Virus record (IMG/VR): IMGVR_UViG_3300007255_000006 | Coordinates: 1-28,859 of that record | Source of the DNA: a virus | Lineage: Duplodnaviria; Caudoviricetes | Direction: 5' to 3' (one strand) | Length of the DNA: 28,859 bases | Shown: positions 1,361 to 15,345 of the stretch, piece by piece | How positions within the stretch are numbered: the stretch's first letter is position 1 | How the letters are laid out: each line of letters starts with the position of its first letter | The notes under the pieces: generated by a model | Databases searched by the model: none | What the model was told of the DNA's origin: nothing | What the model saw: the letters and a program-made list of their open reading frames with translations, nothing else | Translations under genes and position numbers: made by a program

Positions 1361-3892
1361 TCAAGCAGCCATCTCCAATTTGACCTTTTCAAAGGCCCCG
1401 TAGTGTGTAGTAGATATTTCTATATCGCATGGGATGGTTAAGATGTAATCTCTCTTAAGACTACAGTAGAGAGAGAAGTCTATAGGAGCTTGCATGTGTT
1501 TCTTTAATAATTTAGCGTATGGCATCCAATTATTCTCAGGCACTTCCATTAGTAATTCGTCATGTTTCTCACCTATGAAGTAACCTTCTATATCATCCTG
1601 CCCTATTTCTTCCTCAATAGCGAGGGCAGCTCCTTGAACCAAATGTCCAACAGTTCTTTGTGGGATGTTCGCAAATCCTTCTTTAAATATCTCATCATCC
1701 ATTCTACCGTTAAATAAACGCACGCCACCAAAAGGATCGATAAGACAACGAGTTGATCTAATAACCTCAGTAATATCTGTCCAGAAATTGTCTTCGAGTC
1801 TGTTGTCTGCATTACGAAACTTCTCGATCATTACACCAGCTTTCCACTCACTAATGTTTATATCAATCTCAAACTTTTGTGCATCTGTGTTAAACTCTAA
1901 CATGAATCTGCCCTTACCCATCTTATAGTTACCAGCATGTCTAGTCTTCTTACCACAGAATCTCTCTGGGCCATCCTTCTCCATATCATCAACTACTGGT
2001 ATCTTGATAGGGCGTAAGTCTAAATTAGCCGTATAACCTAGAACCAATGCAGCCGTCCTGCGATGGATATCAATCTTATCGAAGACTTCTAGCAGATCCC
2101 ACTGTCTAGCTAAGACGGCTACAACTCTAGCCTCGGCTTGGCTTGCATCTGCTTTGACAAATACCTTGCCAGGTCTAGGTCTAAGCATGGACTTAATGTC
2201 TTTTGCAAGCCTGCCATGAGCTGAGATAGTGTGGAATGCAAGACCAATCTTCTTTGGACGTAACGGCTTCTTAAGGATTCCTGTAGATGACCTACAAGTT
2301 TCCGTTGCGCTGATATTATAGATAGTCTTGCATGTTCCGTCATAATCAGGGCAGAAATTAATATATCTAGATTTTTGATCTCTAATTCTTCTTTCTTCAA
2401 GAACATCTGTGAGGATTTCCTTGTGACCTTTTTTCTTGGCATGATTAGCCATTAACCTCACAATAGTTTCTTCAGCCGTTGGATTTCGTCTCATCAACTT
2501 AAACTTCATCTCTTTATAAAGAAGCTCGAATATATTGGGATAACTCTTAACATTCAAATCATGCCCAACTCGTTCTACTAGACGTTCATGAACTACACGT
2601 TGCATCTCTGTATATTTCTTCTTTAACTCTTTCTGTCTGGAGAGATCTACATCGAATCCTACATTCTCCATACGTAGATAGAATTTGTGCTTTTTCATCA
2701 TATAATCATAATAGTAAGAGAGAAGAGGAACACCATACTTCTCTCCTAATTCTATTAAATCCTTATCCTGTTCTTCATCAACTTCTTTCTCAACAGCCGA
2801 ATCCTTGGCGTTATATAGTAGTAATTTTTCGATTGGCTGTTTGCCAAGCTTAAATTCCTTTCCCTCATCCTTGTAGAAGGGCTCTCTTGTCCACAAAGAG
2901 CTGACATCACAGAGCCTCTTCTGTGGCATCTCAGGGAATATAACTCTAGTCTTAATTAATGTGTCACTAACTACATTCATGGTTCTGAAACGTCTATCAC
3001 CAAACCCTGCAAGAGTTAGCTTGAACTCATCATACTTGAAGTTATGGCCTACTAGCATCAATCTTGCTAATTGTATAGCAACCATTTTCCATACTTCGTC
3101 CATCTCATTATCACCCATATCAGTAAGTTTATGCTTTCCAATAGAGCGAAGAAGAGGAACAGATATAGCATGATGACGGTTGAAGGCGAAGCTAATACAT
3201 ACAGGAATGCAGTTGATAGACTCAATATCAGAAGTTGCTTTGTTGAGTTTCTCATACTCACTGAAGAACCTATAGAGATCAAGAGAGGAGTTTGCCACAG
3301 ACAGAGTGCGGCTTGGTAGAACAAGAGAGGAGGTAAGAGACTCTTCGACGGCTCTAATTATATCAGATTCAATCAGTTTTAGATATGTCCATTCTAATCC
3401 ACCCTTAGCTTCATCTTCACCTTCTGATCTATTAAAGAGTGCAGCAGGATGGATAGTAGGGACACACTTCGTGATGCCATCACGTGATGTTAGAATGCTG
3501 CCACGATAATCTAATATCCCACTTGGCTTACCATTCTTTTCTGTAACACCCATACCTACAATAGCTTCTAGAGCATAATTCCCAACGGCTAGAATACAGT
3601 TAGGTTTGAGTCTCTTAATCTCGTTATCCCACAGCTCTTTTATACAGTCTTCTATGTTTACACCAATCAGGTGTAATTTAGACATGTCATTGAGCGGTGG
3701 ACGAAATTTAATTACATTAGTAATGTAGCAGTCTGATCTCCTAATACCAGCCTTGAATAATAGCTCATTAAGTATCTGCCCAGTAGGACCAGAGAATGGT
3801 ATTCCAGTTTCATCTTCATGTTTACCAGGTGCTTCACCCACTATCATTAATTTAGGTTCAAGTGAACCAACGCCACCTATGTAATTGGGCAT
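1361..3892 (-). CDS. polA: family A DNA polymerase with N-terminal family-4 uracil-DNA glycosylase-like domain and 3'-5' exonuclease (SPO1-like architecture)
   Basis: UDG motifs VGEAPG..ED..G.PFSG, YITNVIKFRPP, TIHPAA; exonuclease motifs SDIES, GHNFKYD, YNAKD; polymerase motif A DASQAEAR, motif B KKTRHAGNY, motif C HDELL. Confidence 0.95.
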   Translation of the reverse strand: MPNYIGGVGSLEPKLMIVGEAPGKHEDETGIPFSGPTGQILNELLFKAGIRRSDCYITNVIKFRPPLNDMSKLHLIGVNIEDCIKELWDNEIKRLKPNCILAVGNYALEAIVGMGVTEKNGKPSGILDYRGSILTSRDGITKCVPTIHPAALFNRSEGEDEAKGGLEWTYLKLIESDIIRAVEESLTSSLVLPSRTLSVANSSLDLYRFFSEYEKLNKATSDIESINCIPVCISFAFNRHHAISVPLLRSIGKHKLTDMGDNEMDEVWKMVAIQLARLMLVGHNFKYDEFKLTLAGFGDRRFRTMNVVSDTLIKTRVIFPEMPQKRLCDVSSLWTREPFYKDEGKEFKLGKQPIEKLLLYNAKDSAVEKEVDEEQDKDLIELGEKYGVPLLSYYYDYMMKKHKFYLRMENVGFDVDLSRQKELKKKYTEMQRVVHERLVERVGHDLNVKSYPNIFELLYKEMKFKLMRRNPTAEETIVRLMANHAKKKGHKEILTDVLEERRIRDQKSRYINFCPDYDGTCKTIYNISATETCRSSTGILKKPLRPKKIGLAFHTISAHGRLAKDIKSMLRPRPGKVFVKADASQAEARVVAVLARQWDLLEVFDKIDIHRRTAALVLGYTANLDLRPIKIPVVDDMEKDGPERFCGKKTRHAGNYKMGKGRFMLEFNTDAQKFEIDINISEWKAGVMIEKFRNADNRLEDNFWTDITEVIRSTRCLIDPFGGVRLFNGRMDDEIFKEGFANIPQRTVGHLVQGAALAIEEEIGQDDIEGYFIGEKHDELLMEVPENNWMPYAKLLKKHMQAPIDFSLYCSLKRDYILTIPCDIEISTTHYGAFEKVKLEMAA

Positions 3893-13173: not shown

Positions 13174-13482
13174 CTAGCTCTCGTCGTCGCTTGTGCTAGT
13201 TCCAGTGTGTGCGGCCAGTTCTCCAATGGAGACATACTTAATCCGCCGCGTCGCTTTCAAGAGACTTGCAAGCTTGAAAATCAGAGACGCCGGAATCTCC
13301 AATTCATCATACTCGACTTCGTCTCCATCAACTTTTGCCACTTTCGAGAGAACTACCTTACCATTCTCTTTAATTGAGGCGTTCACTCCGTTATGTTCCA
13401 CGGTGAGAGGTGAATGCACATACCTCTTAATCTTCTGTTCACCTGAATCATCGTGCAGTGATGGCCTATTCTGAAATGACAT
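13174..13482 (-). CDS. hypothetical protein whose RBS lies inside hammerhead HH1
   Basis: GAGGT 7 nt before ATG at 13482. Confidence 0.8.
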   Translation of the reverse strand: MSFQNRPSLHDDSGEQKIKRYVHSPLTVEHNGVNASIKENGKVVLSKVAKVDGDEVEYDELEIPASLIFKLASLLKATRRIKYVSIGELAAHTGTSTSDDES

Positions 13483-13486
13483 ATTT

Positions 13487-13542
13487 ACTACCTCTTCAGG
13501 CCCGTCAATTCGGGCGACTGGCTTTCGCCAGTTTCTAGTAGC
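13487..13542 (-). ncRNA. type II hammerhead ribozyme HH1 (variant core)
   Basis: GCUACU-A-GAAA-CUGGC(GAAA)GCCAG-UC-GCCCG(AAUUGA)CGGGC-CUGAAGA-GGUAGU: three stems, CUGANGA and GAAA core, GUC site; predicted cut between 13516 and 13515. Confidence 0.85.
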
Positions 13543-13569
13543 TTAAAGCATTTCTAGTAGCTTAAAGCA
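13532..13569. repeat. perfect 19-bp tandem duplication TTTCTAGTAGCTTAAAGCA x2
   Basis: Copies at 13532-13550 and 13551-13569. Confidence 0.95.
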
Positions 13570-13726
13570 CTATTCTTATCTCTGCAATCGGAATTGATGT
13601 GACCTTAGCGGCTTGGTCCATAGCCTTTACTAACACTTCAAATATATCTCCTATGTCTATGCGATACGTTATGCTGTCTACCTGACTAGGACCGGGCATT
13701 TGCTCAAATATCACTTTTACTTTCAT
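13562..13726 (-). CDS. small protein, 54 aa (MKVKVIFEQMPGPSQVDSITYRIDIGDIFEVLVKAMDQAAKVTSIPIAEIRIVL)
   Basis: Manually translated; GGAGAGGT Shine-Dalgarno. Confidence 0.75.
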   Translation of the reverse strand: MKVKVIFEQMPGPSQVDSITYRIDIGDIFEVLVKAMDQAAKVTSIPIAEIRIVL

Positions 13727-13736
13727 CTTACCTCTC

Positions 13737-14108
13737 CTATCCTTTACGGTAACACCGTGTGCTAGGTTTATCGTGACTATCTCTGTCGAAGCAGATAAAG
13801 AAGTGCAGGTGATTCACGGCGAATTGAATCGCATAATACCATGCTGGATACGATATGATGCGACCACACAAACAGCAACGAACGGCTAATGGGGATAAGC
13901 CTGTTAGTGCTTCTGGCTGTGATAACAAAAGCTTAAAGAGCTTAACCTTATGCGGCCTGAGAGACAGCATGCCACTTCCCATATGCGCGATATGCTGTAG
14001 ATTTAGCCTATTACCAAGCACTATGTTAATAGATTTATTCTCTTCACTAGCGGCTCCTTCCATACCAATGCTAGCTAGTATGTCTCGTTTAGTGCTGTCA
14101 TCTATCAC
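13737..14108 (-). CDS. hypothetical Cys-containing protein, first gene after the 14295-14323 promoter
   Basis: GTG start with AGGAG upstream; CCLC...C...C. Confidence 0.7.
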   Translation of the reverse strand: MIDDSTKRDILASIGMEGAASEENKSINIVLGNRLNLQHIAHMGSGMLSLRPHKVKLFKLLLSQPEALTGLSPLAVRCCLCGRIISYPAWYYAIQFAVNHLHFFICFDRDSHDKPSTRCYRKG

Positions 14109-14165
14109 TTCTTTTAACTCCTATTCTTTAATTGATGTGTTGAGGGTGAAACCACATGATAACAT

Positions 14166-14205
14166 GCGGGTGAACGCGGGTGACGGCGGGTGAACGCGGG
14201 TGAAC
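14166..14205 (+). repeat. 4 x 10-bp tandem repeat GCGGGTGAAC (iteron-like)
   Basis: Three exact copies plus GCGGGTGACG. Confidence 0.95.
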
Positions 14206-14229
14206 GCCACGGGGCGACGTCGGAACGGC

Positions 14230-14258
14230 CGTAAGTGCTTGCATCGCAACGGGTTAGC
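14230..14258. promoter_or_regulatory. 29-bp motif copy 1 (TAA-N4-TTG...CAA-N4-TTA, inverted IHF-like half-sites)
   Basis: 23/29 identical to 16318-16346. Confidence 0.55.
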
Positions 14259-14294
14259 CCGCAAAGCGCGCATGAATAAACCTGCACGAGTGAG

Positions 14295-14323
14295 AGTATA
14301 GCACATCGACGTGGGGATGTCAA
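14295..14323 (-). promoter_or_regulatory. sigma70-type promoter for the replication arm
   Basis: TTGACA-17 bp-TATACT with extended -10 TG. Confidence 0.9.
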
Positions 14324-14351
14324 GTGTCCTATAGTGGTGACAGTTGGTTCT

Positions 14352-14422
14352 GTTCCCCTTATGTGTATCTCTTATATATAATATATATATTAAAATATAT
14401 AGAGAAGAAAAGAGGGGGGAAC
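14352..14422. other. A/T-only core inside a nested imperfect palindrome; candidate origin unwinding element
   Basis: 30 consecutive A/T bases at 14372-14401, flanked by TCTCT/AGAGA and GTTCCCC/GGGGAAC. Confidence 0.55.
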
Positions 14423-14530
14423 CCAAAAAGACCGACACCCCACCTTCGCATACTCCCACCCACGGAGGAACGCTTTCGCCCCGGTTTCTAACCTTTTTGC
14501 TGGCGTTTCTGCGAGTTTTCGCCCTTCTGG

Positions 14531-14580
14531 CGACGTCCGAAAACGTCCACTGGCGTCCACAGACGTGTGTAGACGTCCAC
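14531..14580 (-). repeat. 5 x degenerate 10-bp-period repeat, consensus nnACGTCCAC on plus (GTGGACG on minus)
   Basis: cgacgtccga aaacgtccac tggcgtccac agacgtgtgt agacgtccac, with CGT in phase in all five units. Confidence 0.8.
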
Positions 14581-14643
14581 CTGTCTTCACCAGCATGAAC
14601 CATTTCTATTGGCGTTTTGATATGGGAGACAGCTACAAACACA

Positions 14644-14681
14644 AATAGCCTGTTAAGGTTTTTACACCCTAACAGGCTATT
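14644..14681 (-). terminator. probable intrinsic terminator, possibly bidirectional
   Basis: AATAGCCTGTTAGGG/CCTTAACAGGCTATT stem followed by TGTGTTTGT on minus; T-rich tail on plus as well. Confidence 0.7.
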
Positions 14682-14706
14682 GAGTTTTATTTCTAGTCTG
14701 GAGAGT

Positions 14707-14799
14707 CTAGAAGACTAGAATCCCCCAAACAACCGTATCTGAAAGAACGTGAATGATTGGCATTGCGAAACCCCAAACGACCGTAAGCAATTCAAACAT
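14707..14799 (-). CDS. 30-aa hydrophobic peptide MFELLTVVWGFAMPIIHVLSDTVVWGILVF, RBS inside hammerhead HH2
   Basis: Manually translated; GAGGT 5 nt before ATG; lies between HH2 and a terminator. Confidence 0.6.
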   Translation of the reverse strand: MFELLTVVWGFAMPIIHVLSDTVVWGILVF

Positions 14800-14801
14800 T
14801 T

Positions 14802-14874
14802 GCTACCTCTTCAGGCCTGTTAATTCAGGCGAAGCCTGAGACGTTTTTTAGACGCCTCAAGCTTTTCTAGTAGC
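14802..14874 (-). ncRNA. type II hammerhead ribozyme HH2 (variant core)
   Basis: GCUACU-A-GAAA-AGCUUGAGGCGU(CUAAAAA)ACGUCUCAGGCU-UC-GCCUG(AAUUAA)CAGGC-CUGAAGA-GGUAGC; UUC site; predicted cut between 14831 and 14830. Confidence 0.85.
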
Positions 14875-14889: not shown

Positions 14890-15345
14890 TTACGCTTTCT
14901 TCTGGCTTGCTTCGATTCCGGGCTTGATGAGTGCTACTGCGTCTTCGATAGTGACGCCTGTAGCATTGCTGTAGTTCCTCACTACGAGTCTGAACTGGCG
15001 TTGCACTTCGTCAGTCCACGTAGGATTGACGTATTCTGCAATCGGGTCAGATGCCGCAGTATATTGCGCGTCGTTGTAGCCGTCGATGAGGAATTGAACA
15101 ATCACTTTTTCATCGCTTGTCTTCGTGATGTCCATGAAATCCGACAGGCTTGATGGAAGCGTTTCAGGCTTGCTGTCATCGAATGCTTCCCACGAGATAA
15201 CCTTCGGATTCTTACCTCGCGTCTGACCTACGCGGACGCGCGTTCCTTTGCCAGTCCTAGCCTTGTTCGTTTCCTCTGCCTTGACCGTCATTTCCTTGAC
15301 GAGTGTTTCGCGGACGTCAGCAACGGATTCAGCAACTTGTGCCAT
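14890..15345 (-). CDS. hypothetical early protein (151 aa)
   Basis: Clean ORF downstream of its own promoter; C-terminus is paralogous to 15500-15679. Confidence 0.85.
   Translation of the reverse strand: MAQVAESVADVRETLVKEMTVKAEETNKARTGKGTRVRVGQTRGKNPKVISWEAFDDSKPETLPSSLSDFMDITKTSDEKVIVQFLIDGYNDAQYTAASDPIAEYVNPTWTDEVQRQFRLVVRNYSNATGVTIEDAVALIKPGIEASQKKA

Follow-up and report, generated by a model that had tools for sequence, protein, structure and literature searches.

Type II hammerhead motifs overlapping Shine-Dalgarno sequences in a tailed phage genome, and their candidate role as self-processing gene leaders

Two hammerhead motifs and their gene neighbourhood

The virus record IMGVR_UViG_3300007255_000006 has 28,859 bases and was analysed over its whole length (hereafter, the window). 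It carries tailed-phage genes, i.e. terminase, major head protein, a uracil-DNA glycosylase fused to DNA polymerase A (UDG-PolA), SNF2 helicase, exonuclease and primase. Two elements on the minus strand, termed HH1 (positions 13487..13542) and HH2 (positions 14802..14874), display the type II hammerhead ribozyme motif by descriptor scan, fold and covariance model. Small genes surround them, close to the position at which coding changes from one strand to the other, and each contains a sequence similar to a Shine-Dalgarno (SD) sequence, followed by a start codon.

The order of parts is the same in both elements: stem II 5′ strand, GAAA, stem III hairpin, GUC or UUC, stem I hairpin, CUGAAGA and stem II 3′ strand. 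In HH1 the stem II 5′ strand (13542–13538) is followed by U13537, an extra A (A13536) and GAAA (13535–13532). Stem III is at 13532–13517, the predicted cut is between 13516 and 13515, and stem I with its 6-nt loop (13515–13500) leads to the core (13499–13493) and the stem II 3′ strand (13492–13487). In HH2 the corresponding positions are 14874–14870 for the stem II 5′ strand, U14869, the extra A14868 and GAAA at 14867–14864, then a 13-pair stem III, a predicted cut between 14831 and 14830, stem I at 14830–14815, the core at 14814–14808 and the stem II 3′ strand at 14807–14802. A first-pass annotation of this DNA, made from the sequence alone, had described two minus-strand, three-stem type II motifs, and had placed the 5′ ends of the 3′ products at 13515 and 14830. 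Both points agree with the sequence, the isolated folds and the scan against shuffled controls. The compensatory change that it reported in stem I is present between HH1 and HH2, and stem III, with 6 pairs in one and 13 in the other, does differ in sequence and length and still pairs.

Folded in isolation, both elements give a three-way junction (−22.8 kcal/mol for HH1 and −31.4 kcal/mol for HH2). The descriptor scan of the window finds exactly two matches, HH1 and HH2, and 200 dinucleotide shuffles give a mean of 0.06 loose matches and no strong one. A covariance model made without HH1 and HH2 scores them at 62.8 and 55.4 bits, and the next-best match in the window has 11.2 bits. Chance or artefact is ruled out for the two elements by the shuffles together with these scores. 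The HH2 region is also found, nearly identical, in an independent viral contig (L003/L005). Both elements have the hammerhead core letters C3-U-G-A-N-G-A9, G12-A-A-A15.1 and U16.1-H17. Stem II is open and stems I and III each end in a loop, which is the type II topology, and there are three covarying stems around the core. Of the three, stem II tests this covariation independently, as the filter described below selected for stems I and III.

The SD-like sequence of HH1, GAGGU, is at 13490..13494 on the minus strand and is made up of G8, A9 and G10.1 of the core plus two stem II bases; it is 7 nt ahead of the AUG at 13482. Its duplex with the anti-SD sequence has an energy of −7.2 kcal/mol (here and below the anti-SD is of the E. 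coli type). In HH2 the GAGGU (14809–14805, minus strand) is 5 nt ahead of the AUG at 14799. The placement of both within core and stem II, and their spacing to the start codons, are as first annotated; that the masking strand would depart with the 5′ cleavage product follows from the type II topology.

The gene behind HH1 (13174..13482, minus strand) encodes 102 amino acids and is real: it has 60 homologues, whose N-termini align with the AUG at 13482. It heads a leftward gene run with the SNF2 helicase, exonuclease, UDG-PolA and primase; its product gave no Pfam, PHROG or confident Atlas match. Upstream of HH1 is a 54-aa open reading frame (ORF; 13562..13726, minus strand), which is likely accessory and has no tblastn match in 24 syntenic viral loci that carry the 102-aa gene. 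A perfect 19-nt tandem duplication (13532–13569, minus strand) spans the stop codon of this ORF and the 5′ end of HH1; the first-pass annotation mentions neither it nor the extra A of the two elements. Next is a conserved 123-aa gene (13737..14108, minus strand), with matches in 21 of the 24 relatives. It is the first ORF past a sigma-70-like promoter match (14295..14323, minus strand; 11 of 12 consensus bases, a match to the consensus alone), which is likely the source of the HH1-bearing transcript.

HH2 is preceded by a conserved 151-aa gene (14890..15345, minus strand), whose stop is 15 nt ahead of stem II, and is followed by a putative, presumably translated 30-codon hydrophobic ORF (14707..14799, minus strand). 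Relatives L006 and L007 lack this ORF in the interval from the 151-aa gene to the terminator. A terminator-like hairpin of 16 pairs (14644..14681, minus strand) marks the end of the HH2-bearing unit.

Between the two units, positions 14140–14640 are noncoding and contain short direct repeats (a 10-nt unit in 4.2 copies, 14166–14207), a TA-rich run (14373–14401) and a strong promoter match; this stretch may be an origin or a genome end. The DNA polymerase A with its N-terminal glycosylase domain is encoded at 1361–3892. A cultured close relative of the phage was not found; the top terminase matches have about 32% identity. In the cultured phages searched, no match spans the hammerhead element.

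A family of elements fused to translation start sites

The search patterns for related elements specified parts of stem I and of loop I plus CUGANGAG, and nothing downstream; neither stem II, the second G of the SD sequence nor a start codon was required. Matches came from 37 viral and 101 metagenome loci and from 29 loci in GTDB. A filter on stems I and III left 78 distinct matches, and removal of L330 and L337, in which stem III is weak and stem II missing, brought these to 76. For the final set longer stretches of the array phages described below were added, and elements near the end of a locus or with a stem I not 16 nt long were removed. The family then consists of 79 distinct elements from 27 source groups including the window, and none of the 29 loci from the GTDB genome scan is among the retained elements. 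Exploratory patterns were too tight or too loose: one gave 4 loci (1 structured), a second at least 120 loci with HH2 and one new element among the matches listed, and a third at least 120 loci with 2 convincing elements among the matches listed.

Covariation was assessed on an alignment of 49 non-window members of the 76-element set, chosen by stem III length. Stem II is 92.7% paired, with changes on both sides in 4 of the 5 pairs; it has 18 U-G pairs, which are workable on the sense strand alone. When the alignment is slid as a control, pairing of the whole structure drops to 30%–44%. All core letters are intact in 48 of 50 covariance-model matches, and the cleavage triplet likewise. Stem II of the family has 5–9 pairs and, next to the core, a bulge or an extra A, and loop I is a conserved A-A-U-N-R-A-like hexaloop (partly imposed by the search patterns). 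The Rfam type II model RF02276 gives 16 matches of 23.1–34.2 bits in 8 related loci, all below its gathering score of 37. The family is real, conserved and far above chance.

In seven viral records the covariance model finds 13, 7, 9, 9, 5, 6 and 1 copies; the first six of these are arrays, each on the same strand, and zero copies are found in three partial records of close relatives. A single ORF fills the gap in 19 of 32 array spacers and stops −8 to +3 nt from the next stem II. The array unit is a stop codon, a ribozyme, an SD sequence and a start codon. The element is not limited to the two sites at which it had been taken to act, and is a widespread cassette module. By its sequence, the family is a variant of the type II hammerhead that falls below the Rfam threshold, is fused to a ribosome-binding site and is repeated in arrays. 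Genes behind array ribozymes (L424, L427, L429, L432) include those for a WGR-domain protein, a DUF7168 protein, a UvrD helicase and an ATP-dependent ligase; 37 of 44 such genes have no Pfam match, and several recur between array phages. Selection for circular mRNAs was considered and rejected: the energy of pairing is −6.9 kcal/mol for adjacent stem II strands, −7.1 for non-adjacent strands and −8.8 for a ribozyme's own strands (36 pairs).

The GAG of the SD sequence is supplied automatically by the hammerhead core. Therefore, the test of an SD function rests on what comes after it. A start codon with an ORF of at least 20 codons is present 2–10 nt past the SD sequence in 74 of the 79 elements (background 0.25); counted by the first element of each non-window group, the figure is 23 of 26 against a background of 0.246. 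GAGG is found in 67 of the 74 elements with a start and in 2 of the 5 without. Of 6 elements with a base other than G at position 10.2, 5 (from only 3 source groups) have G at N7, restoring GAGGAG, as compared with 10 of 68 otherwise. SD pairing exceeds that of tail-shuffled controls in 73 of 74. The overlap between ribozyme and SD sequence is conserved and, on this sequence evidence, apparently selected rather than incidental. Family members that have no nearby start (L284, L285, L275:1893–1959) display downstream a complement of their own core, which could fold with that core into an inactive hairpin, and then a separate SD sequence.

Two forms of the junction before GAAA are found. An A-C or U-C junction, which keeps G10.1-C11.1 with the bulge behind it, is present in 38 of the 79 elements. 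The U-A or C-A (extra-A) form, as in the window, accounts for 41 of 79 and occurs in 20 of 26 non-window groups. Both forms are present in 6 source groups. One explanation, which is very unlikely, is that the extra-A copies, HH1 and HH2 included, are slow or inactive, and that the module is a portable ribosome-binding site and repeat which moves small genes between phages by recombination. The non-canonical junction would be in accordance with this, as would the silence of Rfam on the window and its sub-threshold scores on relatives. The window phage and the array phages show no terminase or capsid match in the stretches compared, whereas cassette genes are common to different array phages. 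The intact core and cleavage triplets argue against inactivity, as does the recurrence of the extra-A form in most groups; furthermore, the stems covary on the RNA strand, which a DNA repeat would not need.

The distribution among close relatives is patchy at two slots, and this also bears on the repeat explanation, in its favour. A hammerhead of type III lies over the SD sequence of the 102-aa gene in 2 of the 24 syntenic relatives (L450 and L454); the other 22 have the gene and no hammerhead detected (shuffled controls, 0.33 matches per replicate). At the slot of the 151-aa gene, a type II copy is present in 1 of 18 such loci (L458), and none was found behind the gene in L006, L007 and L008. 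Because of this patchy presence, the module is considered to be gained or lost at the two slots and to be dispensable for the 102-aa and 151-aa genes. The type III motifs (L450:2660–2735 and L454:2920–2985) are directly 5′ of the 102-aa homologues, and the SD sequence overlaps the 3′ strand of stem III. The motif in L450 has one extra core base; in L454 the upstream ORF reads through the motif, and A is opposite A at 10.1/11.1. Differing permutations with the SD sequence in the open stem, seen in two cases, would fit selection for release on cleavage.

Other arrangements are seen at these slots. L458:1497–1577 holds a type II hammerhead and a 40-codon ORF behind the 151-aa homologue, in the same slot as HH2. 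In L008 (860–1000) the HH2 slot contains another long hairpin and a short ORF, with no Rfam or model match. Four relatives without a hammerhead (L443, L448, L455, L457) have a common short motif about 30–60 nt upstream of the 102-aa homologue, and in L439 and L442 a small hairpin is in its place. The orientation of the 151-aa gene relative to its neighbours differs between relatives (L438–L460), which suggests that it is on an invertible segment.

Modelled effect of cleavage and candidate roles

The effect of cleavage was modelled at the level of secondary structure; tertiary contacts and kinetics are outside the models. For 71 members the median energy needed to open the initiation region is 7.9 kcal/mol before and 5.9 kcal/mol after cleavage. 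The median gain per element is 1.8 kcal/mol, and the energy is lower after the cut in 58 of 71; the gain is at least 1.4 kcal/mol in 42, at least 2.8 in 21 and nil in 13. For the two window copies there is no gain (7.3 before the cut, 7.3 and 7.4 once cleaved), as the core, when freed, pairs anew with the early coding sequence. The helix that retains their 5′ product has an energy of about −7 to −9 kcal/mol.

These values bear on the function proposed in the first-pass annotation, a translation timer or switch. In this model the gene would be off as long as the ribozyme is intact and would come on with self-cleavage, which could act as a timer or a condition sensor. The SD overlap on which this was based is real, conserved and apparently selected; the uncleaved state as an effective off state is unsupported, and cleavage-gated translation is considered unlikely. 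In the type II copies the SD sequence does lie in an open stem, from which the partner strand departs with the 5′ product, and it is similarly placed in the two type III hammerheads ahead of the 102-aa gene. The fall in opening energy in most members is in the expected direction, tertiary folding would strengthen the masked state, a non-canonical junction could slow the cut, and engineered constructs act in this manner in E. coli (PMC3664830). On the other hand, the modelled gain is zero for both window copies, and the SD sequence is only partly helical: its 3′ part is in stem II, and the core bases G8 and A9 are left unpaired. Before the cut, the opening energy (median 7.9) is close to the value for 16 ordinary starts in the window (median 6.8, with a different base composition), the 102-aa gene is found in 22 of 24 relatives with no hammerhead detected, and the family has no conserved sensor domain, stem III being free to vary. 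As the models ignore tertiary contacts and kinetics, they make gating less likely rather than refute it.

A broader version of this idea is equally doubtful. The module would be a widespread phage gate, in which a pseudoknot-free type II core has been co-opted as an SD sequence and genes are off until the RNA is cut; exchanges at 10.1/11.1 between the canonical and extra-A forms would tune the timers, fast or slow, in arrays that reach 13 genes, and a type III version would have evolved separately before the same gene.

The position of upstream stop codons raises another possibility. An upstream ORF of at least 40 codons stops −8 to +5 nt from stem II in 59 of 76 elements, against a background of 0.10. 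The formation of stem II might depend on a ribosome that finishes the upstream gene. Within compact arrays such a ribosome would pull stem II apart, freeing the SD sequence and preventing cleavage (translational coupling). Its effect at HH1 would be to melt the hairpin formed by the 19-nt duplication and permit folding. When the 5′ strand is forced open, the opening energy falls as far as it does with cleavage (medians of 6.0 and 5.9 kcal/mol). The stem II probability of HH1 rises from 0.02 to 0.92 in a nascent transcript with the upstream stop region held single-stranded. Ribosome control is nevertheless improbable, as tight packing of cassettes yields the same geometry without selection for coupling, the window copies are 15 and 19 nt from their upstream stops, and the HH1 effect concerns one duplication in one genome and comes from modelling.

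The reading preferred here, with a probability of roughly 0.55, is that HH1 and HH2 are self-processing gene leaders that split polycistronic RNA into single, translation-ready messages. The observed basis is the sequence, the conserved fold, the SD sequence with its start codon, the intergenic position and the arrays. The RNA would fold during transcription, and stem II would conceal part of the SD sequence for seconds. The cut after C17 would free the 5′ piece, held solely by a helix of 5–6 pairs and retaining stem III as a 3′ hairpin. The 3′ piece would begin with a 5′-OH and have stem I as a hairpin cap, followed by a ready ribosome-binding site; hairpin-protected ends of such RNAs resist nucleases. 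The main role would be processing, and a standardised, context-independent expression of small accessory genes. Masking would be short-lived and incidental, a loose link between initiation and processing, and not a regulated switch.

Several findings weigh against the preferred reading. Neither window copy gives a monocistronic piece on both sides, since HH1 opens a long operon. The stem II probability exceeds 0.5 in only 38 of 75 native contexts. For HH2 it is 0.89–0.99 in context once the start codon is transcribed. In HH1 the duplication makes a competing hairpin, and stem II is therefore not predicted in the naked RNA, where the active fold lies 6.6 kcal/mol higher than the minimum; the duplication is predicted to fold on itself and to block HH1 stem II in the native context (probability 0.00–0.03, by modelling). 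The source groups are a manual assignment and lack phylogenetic independence. A pseudoknot between loop I and the tail is absent: the complementarity is 2.82 as compared with 2.95 when permuted (p = 0.96), and a pairing of 4 pairs is reached in 14 of 79 elements. Such a pseudoknot, with the tail over the start codon, was hinted at by the HH1 sequence and is dismissed for the family on the same p value.

Also on this side is the junction of the window copies. The R10.1-Y11.1 pair beside A9/G12 is missing, as the additional A that separates stem II from G12 (13536 in HH1, 14868 in HH2) occupies 11.1, and G10.1-C11.1 is the most conserved pair after A15.1-U16.1 in described hammerheads (PMC3088659). 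Natural exceptions at 10.1/11.1 are known, e.g. a U-U mismatch (PMC3088659), and therefore the missing pair marks a variant and does not exclude the elements from the hammerhead class. The Rfam search that had been suggested as a check did not call the window copies (no hammerhead in the window at E ≤ 1, nor in the region at E ≤ 10).

Relation to known hammerhead systems

Hammerheads clustered in phage DNA cleave in vitro and in E. coli, and single-gene mRNAs have been proposed as their products; clusters flank single prophage genes in Clostridium scindens, Azorhizobium and Agrobacterium, and in haloviruses HF1/HF2 a hammerhead lies 13 nt before a start codon and matches a mapped 5′ end (PMC3088659). 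Three type II copies cleave in Desulfovibrio cells (PMC8782182). Processing may alter stability or translation efficiency, with its purpose described as undefined (PMC6765202), and the role of bacterial and phage hammerheads is called an open question (PMC6155905; PMC6765202). The words “ribosome” and “translation” are absent from the main text of PMC3088659. No report of an SD sequence inside natural phage hammerheads, or of the extra-A junction, was found in a literature search limited for the most part to open-access papers.

The family displays the permutation, core letters, cleavage triplet and intergenic phage location of the described type II hammerheads (RF02276; Perreault et al. 2011, PMC3088659), and members of it may be listed in the type II alignment of that paper. 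It differs from them in that relatives score 23–34 bits, under the gathering score, and the window copies are not reported by Rfam. Stem II of the described forms has about 2 pairs, as compared with 5–9 here, and most have the pseudoknot between loop I and the 3′ tail that is absent here (PMC3088659). Unlike RF02276 type II, the core and stem II double as an SD sequence and the hexaloop is conserved. The loop I pseudoknot speeds up known type II forms. As here, the prophage clusters have several ribozymes between small genes; those tested are triples (PMC3088659), whereas the present arrays have up to 13 copies of one design, each running from stop codon to SD sequence.

Hammerheads of eukaryotic RNA viruses have been linked to translation initiation (PMC13725137). 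These are natural and viral, but of type I and with no SD sequence, and matches to DNA phages were discarded in that study. The elements also resemble ribozymes engineered to mask an SD sequence in E. coli (Klauser and Hartig 2013, PMC3664830), in which the SD sequence is in a ribozyme stem and is freed by cleavage. The engineered version uses the Schistosoma mansoni ribozyme, has the whole site in an extended stem I, and shows background expression when the ribozyme is dead (PMC3664830). The present elements are natural and of type II, their SD sequence is partly catalytic core, and their masking is modelled as weak.

The family links hammerheads to translation start sites by sequence evidence that can be counted, and forms a subfamily that Rfam thresholds miss. 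It offers short constructs that are directly testable, among them the canonical and extra-A junctions that occur as natural pairs within a single array. If gating is true, it would be a natural counterpart to the engineered SD-masking ribozymes. RiboJ-type insulators are synthetic elements in which self-cleavage leaves a defined 5′ end and a hairpin ahead of the ribosome-binding site. In RiboJ the ribosome-binding site is a separate part, whereas here it is inside the ribozyme. By analogy, the elements would work like the known gene-flanking hammerheads and would resemble these engineered insulators; with no gating, they would be a natural insulator and ribosome-binding site in one piece, useful for synthetic biology.

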